In this document: positions 8,056 to 49,949 of the stretch, piece by piece
How the letters are laid out: each line of letters starts with the position of its first letter
How positions within the stretch are numbered: the stretch's first letter is position 1
Assembly: GCA_964350245.1 (NCBI GenBank)
Contig: CAYGJC010000002.1
Coordinates: forward strand, 69,473 to 133,472
Direction: 5' to 3'
From: an uncultured bacterium
Lineage (GTDB): Bacteria > Chlamydiota > Chlamydiia > Chlamydiales > JAAKFR01
DNA length: 64,000 bases
The notes under the pieces: generated by a model
The model's database searches: none
What the model saw: only the letters and a program-made list of their open reading frames with translations
Told to the model about the DNA's origin: nothing
Made by a program: the position numbers and the translations under genes

Positions 8056-9036
8056 GTCTTTTAGGCTCACTATCAGTGACATCATAACCACTATCAGAGG
8101 GGAGGCAAGAGCTAAGCCAAGCCCTCCTATCAGAACAAAGAGTAAAATCTGTCCCATGATTGTAAGCGCAGGTGGGATAGAGACTGTCTTTTGTTCAATG
8201 ACAGGGGTGATTAGATAGCCCTCGGCTACATGCACACCGATATACAGAATGAGTACGTAAAAGGCGGAAAGGGGTCTGTCTGCGAATGCAATCAAAAGTG
8301 CCGGAATGGCAGCAAGAATGGGTCCAACATAGGGAATAAACGTCAGTAGACCGGCTAGGAGGCCTAAGATAAAGGCCAGAGGAATATTCAAAAACCAAAG
8401 TCCTACGAAAGTCAAAATCCCGATCGCGATCATGGATAGTACTTTTCCTAAAAGCCAAAAACGGATGGCTTGTCCCATTTTTGTGAGCACTTCTCCTACG
8501 CGTTCGTAGCTTTTGTCAGGAATAATAAAAAGAGCTCCTTTCAAGTAGCGCTGCGGAAGAATGGCTAGATAAAAACCGACGATCAAAAAAATCACAAAAC
8601 TCACAATCGAGCCAACTGTTGAGGAGAACAGGGTGTAGGCTTGACTTAAAATTTTCTGGCTGTTGAATGAAAGTTCTTTACGTAACGACTCTCCTGAAAT
8701 CAATTTCTCATTGAGATAGGGAGCAAGCGTCTCTCGGAGGTTAAGAGCGGCGTTAGGGAGCTCTTTGAGAAGTCGCTGAAACTGTCCGGCAATCAAAGGT
8801 GAATAGAGCCAGAAAATAAGAACAAAGACACCTGTTATGCTCGTTAGGGCGATCATCAGAGAGGGAAGATAGGGAAGCCGGATGAGTTTCTGGGCCCACC
8901 TCCCGATCGTAGTAAATAAGATGGCTAGCAGAATGGCAGCAAAGCTCAGTAAAAAAACATCAATTGCTGCCCATACGATTAGAGCGCCGGCTACAAGAGC
9001 AAAGGCAAAAAAAATCTCTCTGTAGTGTGCCTTCAT
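8029..9036 (-). CDS. AI-2E family transporter (PerM/YhhT, UPF0118)
   Basis: Multi-TM protein with the PerM-like C-terminal half (IPYVGPILAAIPALLIAF...EGYLITPVI). ATG at 9036 gives an ATGA overlap with the sugar-porter stop. The ORF-track start is 9054. Confidence 0.85.
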   Translation of the reverse strand: MKAHYREIFFAFALVAGALIVWAAIDVFLLSFAAILLAILFTTIGRWAQKLIRLPYLPSLMIALTSITGVFVLIFWLYSPLIAGQFQRLLKELPNAALNLRETLAPYLNEKLISGESLRKELSFNSQKILSQAYTLFSSTVGSIVSFVIFLIVGFYLAILPQRYLKGALFIIPDKSYERVGEVLTKMGQAIRFWLLGKVLSMIAIGILTFVGLWFLNIPLAFILGLLAGLLTFIPYVGPILAAIPALLIAFADRPLSAFYVLILYIGVHVAEGYLITPVIEQKTVSIPPALTIMGQILLFVLIGGLGLALASPLIVVMMSLIVSLKDSTKVVNQT

Positions 9037-40732: not shown

Positions 40733-41140
40733 TCAAGGTTGCGCCGCTAAAGAGATGCCCATCGAGGGGATAAAGGGCGCACTTTTGCTTAAGGCAACAG
40801 CACGAGCTAAGTTGATCGCTTGCTGCTGAGTTCCGCTAAAGTCTACGGTGGCTATTCCCGTGATCAATCTAATCTTGTTAGAATGAAATTCTGCGGGGTA
40901 ACAGTTAGAATTATACTTGTAAACGGTTATGATGGGCTTAGTAAGGTTCAATACCTGGTGGTGGAAGGGAATATGGTGAGACTGTGCAAAGACGCGAGCA
41001 GCTGCTTGTGCAACCGCGATATCTGACTCTGCATGTGTAGAAATAAATCTTTTTTCGCTTCCCTCAACATGGACGGCAGCAAAACTATTTACGATTTGTA
41101 CAACAGCCGTATAGCTTCCTGAAGATGGTTCAAAACGCAT
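40733..41140 (-). CDS. hypothetical protein (135 aa) with an internal two-fold repeat
   Basis: AAGGA RBS 5 nt upstream of the ATG. Two similar halves end in Ala-rich helices (SDIAVAQAAARVFAQ / TQQQAINLARAVALSK). No family recognised with confidence. Confidence 0.55.
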   Translation of the reverse strand: MRFEPSSGSYTAVVQIVNSFAAVHVEGSEKRFISTHAESDIAVAQAAARVFAQSHHIPFHHQVLNLTKPIITVYKYNSNCYPAEFHSNKIRLITGIATVDFSGTQQQAINLARAVALSKSAPFIPSMGISLAAQP

Positions 41141-41403: not shown

Positions 41404-42024
41404 TTAGTGAATCACCTTCACTTCCACACCATACTTGCTCCTAAGTTGAGACTCATAGTCGTCTCTAGATAGGTAGTTATATTGGTAGTTTTCACCATTT
41501 TGTGTCCAACGGTGTGACCATGGCTCGCTACGCGCTTTCAAATAAAGATTTTTGGTTAAAAGTAGATCTTGCTGCTCTGCAGATGTTAAATTTCTTGTTG
41601 GTCTTTGAAACTCAACTAATACGCCATCTGATCTGGTATACCGAGGAAGCGGTGTCTCAACGCGTCGCAAAGTACTCGATGCAGCTGGAGGGGTGCTCTG
41701 TTGAGGTGGGGTAGTTTTTACGTCGCTTACGTGTACTAAGATGTACATGTCATTAAGGGTTTTTTCAGCCAGTGCTCTCCTGGGATCATTAGAGGCGTGC
41801 AAATATATGTTTTCCCATCGTTTAACTTTATGCTCTTCATGTGTCAGTGGACGACATCCATAGAAATAGACCCTTGTTCCGTCGCTCCTGGTTGCTTCGC
41901 GCTGGTACCCAAGCTGTCGACCTTCCTGTAGGCATTGACGCTGAAGATCTTGTTGAGTAAGTTGTGCTGTTAATGTAAAAGGTGCTAAACACAAAAATAA
42001 ATAAATGCATCTCATAAAAAACAT
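41404..42024 (-). CDS. secreted hypothetical protein (206 aa) with two TRSDG modules joined by a Pro/Thr/Ser linker
   Basis: Signal peptide (M)RCIYLFLCLAPFTLTAQ. Module repeat TRSDGTRVYF...NIYLHASNDP / TRSDGVLVEF...NLYLKARSEP. Alternative ATG at 42015 has better RBS spacing. Confidence 0.6.
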   Translation of the reverse strand: MFFMRCIYLFLCLAPFTLTAQLTQQDLQRQCLQEGRQLGYQREATRSDGTRVYFYGCRPLTHEEHKVKRWENIYLHASNDPRRALAEKTLNDMYILVHVSDVKTTPPQQSTPPAASSTLRRVETPLPRYTRSDGVLVEFQRPTRNLTSAEQQDLLLTKNLYLKARSEPWSHRWTQNGENYQYNYLSRDDYESQLRSKYGVEVKVIH

Positions 42025-42182: not shown

Positions 42183-43391
42183 TTACTCTTTTGCTTTCTC
42201 TTTCTCACCTCTCTTGGTGAGACGCTTCCAGTGTTCGTAGGTTTTGAAAAGCTCCGGGTGAATAAGAGCGCGTAGCTTGAGGAACGTAAGCGCGTAAATA
42301 AACCCTTTCTGCCTCACAATCCGGGTGCGGGGACGCCGCTTTTTATCAAGGGGGGTGAGCCGGTACTGCATGTGCAATAAAAAGTGGGCACGGAGGCGAA
42401 TCTTACGGGGAAAATGTGAGTAAGGTTCAAATAATAAATCCTGAATCAACTCATCCGACAGGGCCATCACATCTCCAATATGCACCGTTTTTTCTTGGTC
42501 CTGAAAACGTAGGCGGATCTCGTGCTCCACAATCGGATAGATCAAGGCAGCCGTGAGAATGGAGCGGTCCAAAGTTTGATAGCGCCCCTTTACATTCATG
42601 GAGTCTGCTGCTTTTAGATAGGCATAAAGCTGCTCACCCAATGGCTCAAGGAAATAGGCATTGAGGTGAGGAAAAAGTACCTCCAAAATCTTGGATTCAA
42701 CCAAGAGGCGGAAAAAGGCCTCAGAGGCGCCTGATTCTAGCATCCGAAACATCTCTTCCAAAACGCGGGCCGAAGAACTTTTTTTAATTTCATGGCGGCA
42801 GTTCTCAAGAGCTTCTAGAGCCTTAGGATCAGCGTGAAACCCAAAGCGAGCCCGGAATTTCTGCATGCGGATCATTCTTACAGGATCCTGCTTAAAACGG
42901 AGGTTAGGCTCACCGATGGTCCGTAAATAGTGTTGTTTTAGGTCTTCAAATCCACCGACGTAGTCAATAATCTTATGATCCAGAGGATCGTAAAAAAGGC
43001 CGTTAATAGTGAAATCACGTCGTAACACGTCTTCTTCAGGCGTGCCCCAAATATTGTCTTGAACAATTAATTCGCCATCTGTGGGATCACCTGCTCTAAA
43101 AGTAGCTACCTCAATGATATGCCTACCAAAGCGAATGTGAGCCAGCCGAAAACGGCGGCCAATCAAGAGGCAGCTGCGTTGAAAAAGGGCTTTAATCTCC
43201 TCGGGCTTAGCAGAGGTGGAAATGTCAAAGTCTTTGGGTTTTTTGCGCATGAGCAAGTCGCGTACGCCTCCACCCACTAAGTAGGCAGTGTACCCGGCTT
43301 CATGGAGCTTTTCTAGAACCTGAAGCGCCCGCGGGTCAATAAGATCGTTACGGATATGGTGGTCGTCTGATGTATAGATTTTTTCTTGCAC
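42183..43391 (-). CDS. pcnB: poly(A) polymerase / tRNA nucleotidyltransferase family protein (PcnB-like)
   Basis: YLVGGGVRDLLM ... DFDIST nucleotidyltransferase head, RRDFTINGL, and a long helical C-terminal body ending in a basic tail. Confidence 0.82.
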   Translation of the reverse strand: MQEKIYTSDDHHIRNDLIDPRALQVLEKLHEAGYTAYLVGGGVRDLLMRKKPKDFDISTSAKPEEIKALFQRSCLLIGRRFRLAHIRFGRHIIEVATFRAGDPTDGELIVQDNIWGTPEEDVLRRDFTINGLFYDPLDHKIIDYVGGFEDLKQHYLRTIGEPNLRFKQDPVRMIRMQKFRARFGFHADPKALEALENCRHEIKKSSSARVLEEMFRMLESGASEAFFRLLVESKILEVLFPHLNAYFLEPLGEQLYAYLKAADSMNVKGRYQTLDRSILTAALIYPIVEHEIRLRFQDQEKTVHIGDVMALSDELIQDLLFEPYSHFPRKIRLRAHFLLHMQYRLTPLDKKRRPRTRIVRQKGFIYALTFLKLRALIHPELFKTYEHWKRLTKRGEKEKAKE

Positions 43392-43405: not shown

Positions 43406-44740
43406 TCAAATCACAACTTTATTGTGGATGTGTGGAAAGGCCTTTGTAGCAAAAAAAGTGTCGCGCAGAGCCAAATAGGCCGCTTCGTTATAAATGGAGG
43501 CGAAGGTCTTCCGGTCATAATACGTGTAGCTATACAACATTTTCCGTCCTCCGTATAGCGCAATTTCTTTTTCGAGCTTGGCTGAAAGCTGAGAGGTGGG
43601 CAGAGCGCTTTGGGGTATTCCGTAGATTCCGATGTTTAAAAATTTTTCTTCCCCATAGTGGGGAGCCAAAATTTGAGGGGTCTTCGTTCCTTTAATTGGA
43701 CAAAGCCAAATAGGGAAAATGTTCGTTTCCCGGGTAAAGTGGTCAAAAACTGCGTGGGCTTTTGAGACGGGCGTATAAAAATCATGCACAAAAAAGAGAT
43801 TTTCAGAAACCTCCCTGGGAACACGATGCCAAATGCTGTAAAGCCGCCTACTTGAGAGCGCCCATCCAAAAAAAAGGCGAAAGAGAAAAGGGGGGTGTAC
43901 GGAGCTTAGGTGGATCTTGGGAATACCTATATGGAAAAGTAAACGGAGCATGGTGGGAAGACTTAAGACGTAGCGCCCCATCCAAAAGGCGCCTCTGTCG
44001 ATTCGGAAAAGGTATTCTTTGATGTGCATGGTTTCTTGGACGGGATGGCTTTCGGTGATGTGTTGAATGTACCAAGGGGACCAACTCCACTTTTGCCGAA
44101 AGAGGGGACCCTTTGGATGCGCGCTCATGTTCCCGGTAATGGCGATGCCTTCGTCAGGGTTAAAGGCGATTCCTTCGACAAAATCTCCTTTGTGCTCTGA
44201 AGTTAAAAGAGTGAGTAATTCTTTAACGGGAAGCGGCTGGTAGGTTAGGCAGACGTATTTTTGGGCAGGAATGAGGCGTATTTTAATGCTGGTAATAATG
44301 CCGAGGGTGCCATATGAACCCGATAGTCCATAAAAAAGGGCGCTGTTTTCATCTGGGGAGGCGCGCACACACTCTCCGTTTCCCAAAATGACCTCATACT
44401 CCAAACAGGTGTCGCTCACCTGACCAAAGCGGTGAGAGCTGCTCTCAAGAGCTGCTCCCATGACCGCCCCGCCCACCGTAATCGAACTGAATTCAGGAAC
44501 AACGGGGGGGATCAGGCCTTGTTTAAGGGTCTCTTTGCACAGCTGCTGAAAGGTGACGCGTGGCTCAACGAGCACCCAGTCGGAATGCATTTCCAAGATG
44601 TGGTTGAATGAGGAGAGATCTAGGCCTTTTTGGGGCCGCTTTCGCAAGCAATTTGTAGTGCTGGAAGCTGAAAAGCAAAGCTCTGTTTCTCTATTATTTA
44701 CTGCTTTTTGGAGGCTTTTTACGCGCTCATTATGGTTCAT
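43406..44740 (-). CDS. FAD-linked oxidoreductase, DHCR24/DWF1 (Delta24-sterol reductase)-like
   Basis: Collinear with my recollection of human DHCR24: VLVEPRVTFQQL, PVVPEFSSITVGGAVMGAALESSSHRFG, YEVILGNGECVRASPDENSALFYGLSGSYGTLGI, RLIPAQKYV, FPIWLCP. AGGAG RBS 8 nt upstream of ATG 44740. The ORF-track start is 44809. Confidence 0.78.
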   Translation of the reverse strand: MNHNERVKSLQKAVNNRETELCFSASSTTNCLRKRPQKGLDLSSFNHILEMHSDWVLVEPRVTFQQLCKETLKQGLIPPVVPEFSSITVGGAVMGAALESSSHRFGQVSDTCLEYEVILGNGECVRASPDENSALFYGLSGSYGTLGIITSIKIRLIPAQKYVCLTYQPLPVKELLTLLTSEHKGDFVEGIAFNPDEGIAITGNMSAHPKGPLFRQKWSWSPWYIQHITESHPVQETMHIKEYLFRIDRGAFWMGRYVLSLPTMLRLLFHIGIPKIHLSSVHPPFLFRLFFGWALSSRRLYSIWHRVPREVSENLFFVHDFYTPVSKAHAVFDHFTRETNIFPIWLCPIKGTKTPQILAPHYGEEKFLNIGIYGIPQSALPTSQLSAKLEKEIALYGGRKMLYSYTYYDRKTFASIYNEAAYLALRDTFFATKAFPHIHNKVVI

Positions 44741-44819
44741 GGTGACTACTCCTGGAAAGAAATTCTTTTCTACTGTATCCTCCACGAAAAAGTACATGGA
44801 AAAAATCATCTCCTCTTCT

Positions 44820-46190
44820 ATGAATCAACACTCTACAAAATTATTTGGCACGGATGGTGTGCGTGGGCGTGCGAATCACTTTCCTATGACAGTGGAAGTA
44901 GCGCTGAAATTGGGAAAAGCAGTAGCCAAGGTTCTGCGTCGTCACGATGGAAAGCATCGCGTGGTGATCGGAAAAGATACACGTCTTTCGTGTTATATGT
45001 TTGAAAATGCTCTCATTGCGGGTCTTAACTCTATGGGTGTGGATACGTTGATGCTAGGGCCTCTTCCCACACCTGCAGTGGCTTTCATTACACGTGCTTA
45101 TCGTGCTGACGCCGGAATTGTGATTTCCGCTTCCCACAACCCCTACTACGACAATGGGATCAAAATTTTTACCTCAGATGGAGTCAAACTACCGGATTGT
45201 GTGGAGCAGGACATCGAGAAAATGATCGCCGAAGAGGATTTTGAAGATGTTCCAGCTGACTGTGACGTCGGAAAAAATAAACGGATTGAGGATGCAGGTG
45301 GACGCTACATTGAGTTTGTGAAAGCAACCTTCCCCAAAGGAAAAACACTAAAGGGGATGAAGATCTTTCTTGATTGTGCTAACGGGGCTGCCCACAGGGT
45401 AGCGCCTCTTGCCTTTTGGGAGCTTGATGCCCAGGTGGTTGTGGTAGGCAACGAACCGGATGGGATGAATATTAATCAAAATTGTGGCTCCCTAAATCCC
45501 TCACTCATCCAAAAAGGGGTCATTGAGCATCAAGCTGATGTGGGAATTGCCTTAGATGGTGATGGCGACCGGCTCATTATGGTCGATGAGAAGGGGCATA
45601 TTGTCGATGGAGACACCATATTAGCGATTTGTGCCCACGAACTGAAACGGCTTGGAGAGCTGAAAAACAATCGTGTTGTGGCGACCGTGATGAGCAATAT
45701 TGGAGTGGTGAAGTACCTTGAGTCTCTGGGTATTGAGGTCTTTTTGTCTAATATCGGCGATCGGTATGTGATTCAGGATATGCTCAAACACCAGGCTTTT
45801 TTGGGAGGAGAGCAGAGTGGTCACCTGATTTTTCTCGACCATAACTCTACCGGTGATGGAATTGTTTCGGCCCTCCAAGTCTTAAAAATCATGATTGAAA
45901 GTGAGTCAACGCTCTCTGATCTTGTTTCCAGCGTAAAAAAATATCCCCAGACGCTTGTGAACATCCCGATTCAACGCAAAATTCCTTTGGAGACCAATCA
46001 GACGATTCAACGAGCGATTCAAGAAGTAGAAGCGGAACTGAGCGATCAGGGGCGCGTACTGGTGCGCTATTCCGGAACAGAAAACTTATGTCGTGTGATG
46101 GTCGAAGGGCCCAAGAAGCATCAGGTTGACCTACTTGCTCAGGCCATTGGAAGCTGTATCGAAAAAGAGATCGGAGAAGGAGCAAAATAA
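44820..46190 (+). CDS. glmM: phosphoglucosamine mutase
   Basis: LFGTDGVRG and the active-site SASHNPYYDNGIK. Start is ATG 44820 or 44796. The upstream 80+ codons of the ORF track are antisense to the DHCR24-like gene. Confidence 0.93.
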   Translation: MNQHSTKLFGTDGVRGRANHFPMTVEVALKLGKAVAKVLRRHDGKHRVVIGKDTRLSCYMFENALIAGLNSMGVDTLMLGPLPTPAVAFITRAYRADAGIVISASHNPYYDNGIKIFTSDGVKLPDCVEQDIEKMIAEEDFEDVPADCDVGKNKRIEDAGGRYIEFVKATFPKGKTLKGMKIFLDCANGAAHRVAPLAFWELDAQVVVVGNEPDGMNINQNCGSLNPSLIQKGVIEHQADVGIALDGDGDRLIMVDEKGHIVDGDTILAICAHELKRLGELKNNRVVATVMSNIGVVKYLESLGIEVFLSNIGDRYVIQDMLKHQAFLGGEQSGHLIFLDHNSTGDGIVSALQVLKIMIESESTLSDLVSSVKKYPQTLVNIPIQRKIPLETNQTIQRAIQEVEAELSDQGRVLVRYSGTENLCRVMVEGPKKHQVDLLAQAIGSCIEKEIGEGAK

Positions 46191-48016
46191 TGTGCGGCAT
46201 ATTTGGCTATATTGGACCTAGAGAAGCTTCTTCTCTTGTCATAGAGGGAATTCATAAACTGGAGTACCGGGGTTATGATTCAGCTGGTTTAGCTACCATT
46301 TCTGAGGGGCTACTTCTATCTGAAAAAACGGTAGGAAAGGTCTCGTTCTTAGAAGAGGCCGTAAAAGCCAAAAAATGGCACACGCATATGGCGATTGCCC
46401 ATACCCGTTGGGCAACGCATGGAAAACCGACACAAGGGAACGCTCACCCGCACCTTGACGGACACACTCGGTGTGCTGTGGTTCACAATGGGATTATCGA
46501 AAACCATGATGCTGTCAGGAGTCTTCTCAAAAAACGTGGAATAGTGTTTTGCTCTGATACCGATACGGAAGTCATTTCGCAACTGATAGGTTACTTGTAT
46601 AAAGGAAATTTTTTACGCGCTGTTCAACGGGCGCTGCCTTTGCTTCAAGGAGCTTTTGCCATTGCGGTGATTCATCAAGATCATCCCAATGAGATTGTGT
46701 GTGCAGCAAAAGAGAGCCCTCTGGCTATCGGTTTAGGGCAAAATGAGATGTATATCGCCTCCGATGCCTCAGCTTTTTTAAAGTACACCCGTCGCGTGAT
46801 TTATTTAGGCGCCTCTGAGGTTGCTCTGGTCACGCAACACGGTGTGGAGGCATTTGATTCTCGCCTTGAGCCGATTGAAAAAGAGAGCGAAGATCTCACG
46901 CAGATTGCCGAAGAGGTGAGTAAGGGTAAGTTTCAACACTTTATGCTCAAAGAGATCAACGAGCAGCCGCAAACTCTGCAAAACGCTCTGCTCTCCCGCT
47001 TTAGCCGAGAGTATGGAACAGCTACTTTGGACAATCTCAATTTTACAGACGATGAACTACAAAAAATCGAGCGGGTGGTGATTTTGGCTTGTGGGACCTC
47101 CCTGCATGCAGGAATGATCGCCGCTTATATGATCGAGGAAATGGCGCGTATTCCCGTTGAGATCGAAATTTCGTCTGAGTTTCGGTACAAAAACCCCATC
47201 ATTAAAGACAATACATTGGCAATTGCCATTAGCCAATCTGGGGAGACGGCTGACACGTTAGCCGCGATGCGCGAGCTGAAAGAGAAAGGGGCTAAAATTC
47301 TGGGGATTTGCAATGTGCAAGGGTCCACATTAGCCCGTGAGGTGAATAGCTGTCTCTTTTTACGTGCAGGGGCTGAGGTAGGGGTTGCGGCGTCCAAAAC
47401 ATTTACCAGTCAGTTAATTGTCTTGGCTCTTTTAACGTTACGTTTGGGAAGAATGCGCCAAATGAGCCAGAAAGAGGGTGTCAAGTTCATCGATGCACTC
47501 ACTCTTCTTCCTGCCCAAGTGACACAAGTTCTTAAAGGGAGTGAGCAGATCCAAGAGCTAGCTCGGAAGTATGCTCAGTACGATAATTTCTTTTTTTTGG
47601 GTCGCAGGTACATGTATCCAACGGCACTTGAGGCGGCTTTAAAGCTCAAAGAGATTGCCTATGTAAACGCCAATGGCTATCCGGCGGGAGAAATGAAACA
47701 TGGACCGATTGCCTTGATCAATGAGATGTGTCCGACAGTTGCTTTTTGTAGTGACGCCTTCACTTTCCACAAAATGCTCAGTAACTTGATGGAAGTCAAA
47801 GCGCGTAGTGGACTTGTGCTCGCGATTGCGCCGGGAGGCTCTCCTGACATTGAAGCGATCGCGGATGATGTGATTTGGATTCCACCCACTTTGGATGAGC
47901 TTGCTCCTGTTGCCTCGACCGTTGTTGGTCAGCTGTTTGCCTATTATGTTGCAGCAGAACGGGGCACTGAAATTGATCAGCCACGCAATTTAGCTAAATC
48001 CGTAACTGTAGAGTAA
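46190..48016 (+). CDS. glmS: glutamine--fructose-6-phosphate aminotransferase
   Basis: MCGIFGY Ntn nucleophile, two SIS domains and the C-terminal KSVTVE. TAATG overlap with glmM. Confidence 0.97.
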   Translation: MCGIFGYIGPREASSLVIEGIHKLEYRGYDSAGLATISEGLLLSEKTVGKVSFLEEAVKAKKWHTHMAIAHTRWATHGKPTQGNAHPHLDGHTRCAVVHNGIIENHDAVRSLLKKRGIVFCSDTDTEVISQLIGYLYKGNFLRAVQRALPLLQGAFAIAVIHQDHPNEIVCAAKESPLAIGLGQNEMYIASDASAFLKYTRRVIYLGASEVALVTQHGVEAFDSRLEPIEKESEDLTQIAEEVSKGKFQHFMLKEINEQPQTLQNALLSRFSREYGTATLDNLNFTDDELQKIERVVILACGTSLHAGMIAAYMIEEMARIPVEIEISSEFRYKNPIIKDNTLAIAISQSGETADTLAAMRELKEKGAKILGICNVQGSTLAREVNSCLFLRAGAEVGVAASKTFTSQLIVLALLTLRLGRMRQMSQKEGVKFIDALTLLPAQVTQVLKGSEQIQELARKYAQYDNFFFLGRRYMYPTALEAALKLKEIAYVNANGYPAGEMKHGPIALINEMCPTVAFCSDAFTFHKMLSNLMEVKARSGLVLAIAPGGSPDIEAIADDVIWIPPTLDELAPVASTVVGQLFAYYVAAERGTEIDQPRNLAKSVTVE

Positions 48017-49247: not shown

Positions 49248-49949
49248 ATGAATCGAGGATACATTCAAGATGCGCAAGCAGTCGGCACGTTTTCAACCCG
49301 TGTTTATGGATGGATGGCCATTGGTTTAGGTGTGACAGCTGGGGTAGCTTACTCTATGTTTCGGACAGGTCTCTACCTTAAGCTCATGCCCTTTTGGTGG
49401 GTGTGGGCGATGGCGACTTTTGGTATTGCCATGGGAATCAGTGCAGGCTTAAAGAGGCTTTCGATTGGTGGGGTGATCGGACTCTTTCTTGCCTATGCGG
49501 GCTTAGAAGGGATTTTATTTGGTACGCTTCTGCCTGCTTTCGCCGCTGCTTTTGGTGGACAGGTCATTTGGGCCGCCTTCTTAACTGCCTCAGCCATTTT
49601 TGCTCTTGCAATGGGCTATGGCATGTTTACAAGAAATGACCTCACTAGCTTGGGGAGAATCCTCACTTTTGGTTTGATTGGTTTGATTGCTGTGACTTTT
49701 CTCTACATGATTCTCTCTTTTTTCATTCCGATGCAGTGGGCGCACCTATTTATTAGTTATTTAGGCCTTGTCATTTTTATTGGCCTGACAGCCTATGATG
49801 CACAGACGATTCGTCAGATGAGCATGCAAGTGGATGTCAACTCGACGGCTTCCTACAAGCTATCGATGATCATGGCATTGAGGATGTACATTAATGTGAT
49901 CATGATCTTCTGGTACTTGCTGCAAATCTTTTCATCGGGGCGGAAGTGA
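49248..49949 (+). CDS. Bax inhibitor-1/YccA family membrane protein
   Basis: 233-aa 7-TM protein with the BI-1 pattern (FSTRVYGWMAIGL ... TAYDAQTIRQM). GGAGG RBS. Confidence 0.85.
   Translation: MNRGYIQDAQAVGTFSTRVYGWMAIGLGVTAGVAYSMFRTGLYLKLMPFWWVWAMATFGIAMGISAGLKRLSIGGVIGLFLAYAGLEGILFGTLLPAFAAAFGGQVIWAAFLTASAIFALAMGYGMFTRNDLTSLGRILTFGLIGLIAVTFLYMILSFFIPMQWAHLFISYLGLVIFIGLTAYDAQTIRQMSMQVDVNSTASYKLSMIMALRMYINVIMIFWYLLQIFSSGRK

Follow-up and report, generated by a model that had tools for sequence, protein, structure and literature searches.

The window analyzed here is a 64,000-nucleotide stretch of a contig (CAYGJC010000002.1) from an uncultured bacterium of the Chlamydiota. The gene under study, on the minus strand, encodes a flavin adenine dinucleotide (FAD)-linked oxidoreductase that resembles DHCR24, the Delta24-sterol reductase of eukaryotes. 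A first reading of the sequence (the original prediction) had described the product as a eukaryote-like DHCR24/DWF1 enzyme without the eukaryotic membrane anchor. The gene and the features around it are as follows.

43406..44740, minus strand: coding sequence (CDS) of the DHCR24-like FAD oxidoreductase, 444 amino acids, placed by homologue starts, a public gene call and a ribosome-binding site (RBS); the FAD_binding_4 domain covers approximately residues 1-190 and the DHCR24-type cap/substrate domain approximately residues 190-444
44504..44510, plus strand: G7 homopolymer (C7 in the coding strand), part of the Ile-Pro-Pro codons of the conserved GLIPPVVPEF motif
44741..44809, minus strand: in-frame upstream extension of 23 codons, holding the AGGAG RBS at approximately 44749-44753
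44741..44820, no strand: divergent intergenic region of about 80 nt between the DHCR24-like gene and glmM
42183..43391, minus strand: poly(A) polymerase/CCA-adding family gene (PolyA_pol, PolyA_pol_RNAbd; pcnB), downstream on the same strand
44821..48016, plus strand: divergent glmM-glmS pair, encoding phosphoglucosamine mutase and glutamine-fructose-6-P aminotransferase

Coding sequence and immediate locus

Counted from the first ATG, the uninterrupted maximal open reading frame (ORF) at this locus spans 43406-44809 on the minus strand and encodes 467 amino acids. The 120 best database homologues are 444-446 amino acids long, and their alignments start at residue 1-3 of the short form, which begins at the second ATG. 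On a public contig of identical sequence, an independent gene prediction places the start at 44740, and the AGGAG motif lies 8 nt 5' of this ATG, in agreement with the RBS-supported start of the original prediction. Because these three lines of evidence coincide, the CDS is most likely 43406..44740. A start at 44809 would leave about 11 nt to the divergent glmM start, and the 23-codon extension is probably not translated. The 1.6-kb stretch around the gene shows zero differences across four independently assembled biofilm metagenome runs.

The glmM-glmS pair lies upstream on the opposite strand and the G7 run lies within the CDS, both as originally described. The run is not conserved at the DNA level, and relatives use other codons for the same residues. 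Phase variation at this site was considered and rejected: the run is identical in the four assemblies (compared as contigs, not reads) and is unconserved as DNA in relatives. On the downstream side, the GTG start of the poly(A) polymerase gene lies 14 nt past the stop codon of the DHCR24-like gene. A scan found no terminator-like site between the two genes, which are probably co-transcribed. Promoter and terminator scans at the locus performed no better than on shuffled sequence.

Similarity to DHCR24 and to other VAO/PCMH flavoenzymes

BLASTP aligned residues 3-442 of the 444-amino-acid protein with residues 67-510 of human DHCR24 (confirmed by exact look-up as DHC24_HUMAN / NP_055577.1), with 29% identity and an E-value of 5e-59. 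This end-to-end alignment opens just past the hydrophobic N-terminus of the human protein, and it contains all five of the peptide pairs from which collinearity with human DHCR24 had been proposed. The FAD domain is 38% and the cap domain 27% identical to that of the human protein. The only Pfam domain detected was FAD_binding_4 (PF01565; 54.2 bits against a cut-off of 26.4 bits), as in human DHCR24. The ALO, Cytokin-bind, FAD-oxidase_C and BBE C-terminal domains gave no match in the protein even at E ≤ 1.

Alignment of canonical DHCR24 sequences with the prokaryotic, or bacterial-type, relatives of the window protein revealed 39 columns conserved in both sets alike, of which the cap domain holds 21. 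The cap-domain residues that the family has in common with canonical DHCR24 include PIWLCP, the Y-x-x-R-x-x-R-x-x-x-W region and Tyr403, the equivalent of human Tyr471. Human R94, R103, E191, N294, K306 and Y471 are positions that we take to be desmosterolosis sites at which mutation abolishes activity. Three of these six (human R103, E191 and Y471; R33, E116 and Y403 in the window protein) are conserved family-wide, and the other three (R94, N294 and K306) are not.

The absence of an N-terminal membrane anchor, part of the original prediction, was confirmed by hydropathy. In 19-residue Kyte-Doolittle windows the protein reaches a maximum of 1.40, with no window at 1.5, whereas the hydrophobic segments of human DHCR24, at residues 1-53, reach 1.99. 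The cap domain of the window protein carries a hydrophobic insert of about 24 residues (approximately residues 257-283, modeled at lower pLDDT) that human DHCR24 does not have and that may compensate for the missing anchor. In sum, the protein has the collinear catalytic region and Pfam architecture of DHCR24/DWF1 (DIMINUTO; K09828, EC 1.3.1.72), together with the motifs ITVGG..G..ESSSH, RLIPA.KYV, Y..R..R..FW, LFGW, PIWLCP and MLY. It differs in having no anchor, in its extra cap insert, in its placement outside the canonical clan described below, and in coming from an organism without a known sterol pathway.

An AlphaFold2 model built from 29 homologues had a pLDDT of 89.8 and a pTM of 0.90 and adopted the VAO fold. 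The nearest solved folds identified by Foldseek were cytokinin oxidase (CKX) and DprE1 (probability 1.00, E-values of 1e-19 to 1e-21, TM-scores of 0.62-0.69). Neither the sequence matches nor the fold matches to the Protein Data Bank (PDB) included a DHCR24 structure, and matches in a viral structure library were generic FAD oxidoreductases of giant viruses alone. Sequence and model both assign the protein to the VAO/PCMH flavoenzymes, with a PCMH-type FAD_binding_4 domain followed by a cap domain. DprE1 (decaprenylphosphoryl-ribose 2'-oxidase) and plant cytokinin oxidase/dehydrogenase have the same two-domain fold, and their substrates bear prenyl groups. However, both are oxidases with cap domains of other families, and their sequence similarity to the window protein is confined to the FAD domain, with E-values of 1e-8 to 1e-16.

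These matches raise the alternative that the protein, like most VAO/PCMH enzymes (DprE1, cytokinin oxidase, sugar-lactone oxidases), is an oxidase or dehydrogenase acting on an alcohol or amine of a lipid-linked or small substrate. Its best NCBIfam and PDB sequence matches are indeed DprE1, sugar-lactone oxidase, GlcD and cytokinin oxidase, and one homologue (P0030) is annotated as a DprE1-type oxidase in a metagenome-assembled genome (MAG). A gulonolactone-oxidase-like activity has also been reported for Bombyx DHCR24 (PMC9602106). In one related locus (L048, 5180-5923), a short-chain dehydrogenase (SDR) gene abuts the DHCR24-like gene directly upstream with zero gap, resembling the DprE1/DprE2 arrangement. 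However, this adjacency was found in that locus only, and SDR relatives lie a few genes off in two others. The oxidase matches are weak: the best PDB sequence relatives (cytokinin oxidases, DprE1, D-lactate dehydrogenase) have E-values of 1e-16 to 1e-7 over the FAD domain alone. The DprE1 model (NF053785) scores 46.9 bits against a cut-off of 500 bits and covers only an N-terminal stretch, and the NCBIfam DprE1, GlcD and sugar-lactone oxidase models all leave the protein about ten-fold under their cut-offs. The cap domain, in contrast, matches that of DHCR24 and shows none of the oxidase-type C-terminal Pfam domains. We therefore consider an oxidase function unlikely. The full-length match to DHCR24 (5e-59) against an FAD-domain match to the generic enzymes (1e-16) indicates a specific affinity to DHCR24, as had been predicted. 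By these comparisons, the window protein is a true full-length relative of DHCR24, far closer to it than to other VAO/PCMH flavoenzymes.

Phylogenetic position, distribution and gene neighborhood

We built unrooted neighbor-joining (NJ) trees with 200 bootstrap replicates from 275-286 non-redundant sequences. The canonical set comprised 12 sequences (seven land plants, four vertebrates and one protist transcript), found with a human DHCR24 profile and a DWF1 sequence that was used only as a seed. Chrysoparadoxa P0238, also tried as a seed for eukaryotic DHCR24, turned out to be bacterial-type rather than canonical. All 200 replicates group the 12 canonical DHCR24/DWF1 sequences as a clan, whose stem measures 0.46 substitutions per site. 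This clan leaves out the window protein and every sequence from Chlamydiota, the candidate phyla radiation (CPR), DPANN, Legionella, Pezizomycotina and stramenopiles. The window protein falls within a group of 70 sequences in which all labeled members are chlamydial, and within an inner clade with the proteins of two related loci (L002 and L003) at 95%. On this tree, it belongs to a diverse, mostly prokaryotic, bacterial-type set outside the eukaryotic Delta24-sterol reductase clan. Deep nodes outside the canonical clan have bootstraps mostly <30, and the set is not rootable.

An exhaustive search of 1.84 billion cluster representatives returned 459 matches below 1e-30, and the window protein is 33-83% identical to its prokaryotic homologues. 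A distribution scan using one genome per GTDB species, which addressed the spread across Chlamydiota, found relatives in Parachlamydiales, Simkaniaceae, Rhabdochlamydiaceae, Waddliaceae and other environmental families of that phylum. The same scan recovered relatives in Patescibacteria, namely Saccharibacteria (including a complete chromosome and contigs >400 kb) and Nomura-, Morani-, Levyi- and Taylorbacteria, and in the Archaea one Woesearchaeote. Look-ups of unlabeled representatives added Legionella busanensis and an Andersenbacterium. Many of these homologues are already named Delta24-sterol reductase by the JGI pipeline.

Several chlamydial and CPR genomes carry two copies of the gene, as adjacent pairs or dispersed. 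There are also proteins of about 900 amino acids with two tandem DHCR24-like modules (P0122, P0124, P0126, P0127 and P0128; loci L024 5833-8800, L028 and L065). The tandem modules and paralogue pairs may point to heterodimer formation or to a reaction in two steps.

The closest genome is MAG O_S4.2_2 (S4CHLAM2), placed in Ca. Sororchlamydiaceae by Dharamshi et al. 2022 (ISME J, PMC9666466). Its orthologue, S4CHLAM2_05800 (K09828 "sterol reductase"; contig L001), is 83% identical at the protein level and lies in the same gene order. Genome GC is also close (46.7% here versus 46.65% for the S4CHLAM2 MAG). The window organism is nevertheless a different species, recovered from biofilm metagenomes and not from a sponge. 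The same study reported a "Delta24-sterol reductase K09828" in all Ca. Sororchlamydiaceae genomes examined, K09828-annotated sterol reductases in Simkaniaceae, and DHCR7 (K00213) in two Sororchlamydiaceae MAGs. It found the gene family enriched in sponge-associated chlamydiae, and its tree has chlamydial sequences branching with bacterial and eukaryotic homologues; it reports presence and a tree, not function. This kind of gene is thus already published for sponge-associated chlamydiae, and the window gene is a further member rather than a discovery. What is new here is that this kind of gene is clearly separated from canonical DHCR24, that the family extends broadly into CPR, DPANN and Legionella, and that the sterol label calls for caution.

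To survey gene neighborhoods, we grouped the ORFs from 80 related loci into clusters and assigned Pfam domains to 30 neighbor families. The block glmS-glmM, the divergent DHCR24-like gene, pcnB, an S9 hydrolase gene, a GT2 gene and lpxB is kept in about 18 chlamydial loci, in which identity of the DHCR24-like protein falls to about 41%. Adjacency to the poly(A) polymerase gene is kept in 18 loci and to glmM-glmS in about 17. The glmS-glmM...lpxB block is limited to the closest chlamydial clade; elsewhere, the neighbors are unrelated housekeeping genes. The rest of the window reads as a typical chlamydial chromosome, with an NTT/TLC nucleotide transporter, dxr, mur genes, lpxB and hrcA-grpE-dnaK. 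The gene itself has a GC content of 0.479 and a GC at third codon positions (GC3) of 0.52, within about 1.2 standard deviations of the other genes in the window.

A recent capture from a eukaryotic host (animal, sponge, alga or amoeba), followed by loss of the anchor, would account for the overall similarity to DHCR24 and for automatic names such as "Delta24-sterol reductase". It would also have precedent in the host-derived DHCR7/ERG4-type reductases of Coxiella, Legionella drancourtii and Protochlamydia (PMC2817430, PMC2667531). However, recent acquisition is disfavored because the canonical clan, with its full bootstrap support and long stem, excludes the protein, because its GC and GC3 are native, and because synteny is kept among sequences down to the 41% identity noted above. 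Likewise, the protein is only 29% identical to human DHCR24, against the range given above for prokaryotic homologues, and no named canonical eukaryotic DHCR24 above E 1e-51 appeared among the matches listed from the 1.84-billion-representative search. We regard host capture as very improbable. The original prediction therefore holds for a DHCR24-like, anchor-less enzyme, but not for "eukaryote-like" in the sense of host-derived, given the canonical clan, the prokaryotic radiation, the native composition and the synteny. We favor a gene long resident in, and vertically inherited by, a Sororchlamydiaceae-like chlamydial lineage. Because the tree is an unrooted NJ tree with low deep bootstraps, this conclusion covers recent acquisition, and an ancient exchange with eukaryotes at the base of the family could have run either way.

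Bacterial-type copies also occur in some stramenopile algae (P0238 from Chrysoparadoxa, P0268 from Phaeothamnion and P0267 from MMETSP) and some Pezizomycotina (P0232, P0244 and P0247). They lie outside the canonical clan, yet UniProt calls them "Delta(24)-sterol reductase". Either they are paralogues with a wrong name, or eukaryotes may have acquired them from prokaryotes. Desmond and Gribaldo (2009) placed DHCR24 in a large family with bacterial FAD dehydrogenases and noted that Pezizomycotina have extra copies.

Other neighborhood features concern individual clades or the window itself. In five loci of one Parachlamydiales-like clade (L019, L022, L023, L030 and L075), a gene for an FNR-type reductase (FAD_binding_1 and NAD_binding_1, without a flavodoxin domain) lies upstream, beside or near the DHCR24-like gene, and its product could be an electron donor. 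A P-type (E1-E2) ATPase gene is the immediate neighbor in six loci from Chlamydiota and Patescibacteria (L019, L043, L046, L047, L061 and L077) and may mark a shared mobile segment. In the window, two ORFs without a Pfam match (41404-42024 and 40733-41140, both minus strand), the first with a signal-peptide-like N-terminus, lie between pcnB and the S9 hydrolase gene. In most syntenic relatives the hydrolase gene directly follows pcnB, so the two ORFs look like a lineage-specific insertion. A Bax inhibitor-1 family membrane protein (49248-49949, plus strand) is kept in the syntenic block of related chlamydiae. Farther away, a gene for a Glyco_hydro_64 protein of the beta-1,3-glucanase family adjoins one for an MFS sugar transporter (10390-12120 and 9033-10370, minus strand), and the target of the former could be a glucan of a eukaryotic host or prey. 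Just past the right end of the window (L083, 1-3853), a ribonucleotide reductase large subunit of 1444 amino acids has a faint LAGLIDADG match, which suggests an intein.

Reaction, substrate and significance

Our preferred reading, which we hold with about even confidence, is that this resident chlamydial gene encodes an FAD-dependent enzyme that reduces a terminal C=C bond of an isoprenoid, in the DHCR24/DIMINUTO-like branch of the VAO/PCMH enzymes, with host sterols as a plausible substrate. With its two-domain VAO/PCMH fold, this flavoprotein would be either soluble or attached peripherally to a membrane. Because the 21 family-wide cap-domain residues are common with canonical DHCR24, we infer the same cofactor cycle and reaction type. 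Shared cap residues suggest that NAD(P)H would reduce the FAD; the hydride acceptor would then be a trisubstituted C=C in the dimethylallyl terminus of an isoprenoid chain, which a hydrophobic pocket would enclose.

For the chlamydial enzyme, Delta24 sterols from the eukaryotic host would be the most plausible substrate, and a non-sterol isoprenoid lipid would be nearly as likely. There is a precedent for chlamydial modification of sterol side chains: in vitro, a sterol methyltransferase of a Chlamydiae MAG can methylate desmosterol (PMC10070321). Host Delta24 sterols are obvious candidates because of this precedent and because of the enrichment of the family in sponge-associated chlamydiae. 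Host-sterol remodeling has a further functional analogue in Stmp1 (CBU1206), a eukaryote-like Delta24(28) sterol reductase of Coxiella burnetii, an intracellular bacterium that makes no sterols. Stmp1 differs in being clearly eukaryote-derived, in complementing yeast erg4, and in being a nine-transmembrane integral membrane protein of the ERG4/ERG24 family, with an unrelated fold and without FAD_binding_4. The window protein has no Pfam match to ERG4/ERG24-type sterol reductases and no hydrophobic segment.

Several observations weigh against this reading, in particular against a sterol substrate. The 27% identity of the cap domain to human DHCR24 is low, and the equivalents of human R94, N294 and K306, half of the six presumed desmosterolosis positions, are not conserved. 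No sterol-pathway or sterol-modifying genes were found in the 64-kb window or among the conserved neighbors of the 80 loci, nor did those loci reveal a lipid-related neighborhood conserved across the wider family. The activity of bacterial-type members is a prediction from homology. Finally, the family is common in Patescibacteria, with complete Saccharibacteria genomes among the carriers, and occurs in a Woesearchaeote, none with an evident sterol source; the known hosts of these groups are sterol-free prokaryotes.

Those carriers point to an alternative in which the same reductase chemistry is directed at a non-sterol isoprenoid of bacterial or archaeal type and the sterol link is an ancestral resemblance only. 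The enzyme could, for example, saturate the omega-terminal isoprene of polyprenyl phosphate carriers, of quinone side chains or of squalene- and hopanoid-type lipids. In favor of this, the presence of dxr indicates that the window genome has its own isoprenoid synthesis, prenyl groups are bound by both of the nearest solved folds (DprE1 and cytokinin oxidase), and the radiation of the family is star-like and deep within prokaryotes. However, across the family the gene has no consistent link to isoprenoid, quinone or cell-wall operons. The adjacency to glmM-glmS occurs in one chlamydial clade only and is divergent, hence not an operon, and the sponge hosts of the chlamydiae in which the family is enriched are sterol-rich (PMC9666466). 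As a complete account we treat this alternative as tentative, although as substrates sterols and non-sterol isoprenoids would deserve roughly equal weight, with an oxidase function taking a smaller share.

A broader and more speculative proposal, which we think improbable as a whole, would join these observations. The DHCR24 fold, rather than having arisen in eukaryotes and passed to bacteria, would be an old prokaryotic family concentrated in host-dependent Chlamydiota, Patescibacteria, DPANN and Legionella. Its members would act on scavenged isoprenoid lipids and saturate their terminal isoprene; in chlamydiae these lipids would be sterols, and in CPR and DPANN they would be of polyprenyl or archaeal type. 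This pool would have given rise to eukaryotic DHCR24/DWF1 as well as to the additional Pezizomycotina copies and those of stramenopile algae.

If the substrate is a non-sterol isoprenoid, the K09828 label, now on hundreds of chlamydial and CPR proteins, would be misleading, and the family would be a lipid-remodeling enzyme of host-dependent prokaryotes. If the preferred reading is correct and the enzyme reduces Delta24 sterols, it would be a second tool of environmental chlamydiae for modifying host-sterol side chains, beside the sterol methyltransferase. This would bear on the use of side-chain-modified steranes as biomarkers of eukaryotes or sponges, and on how intracellular bacteria may tune the membranes of their hosts.

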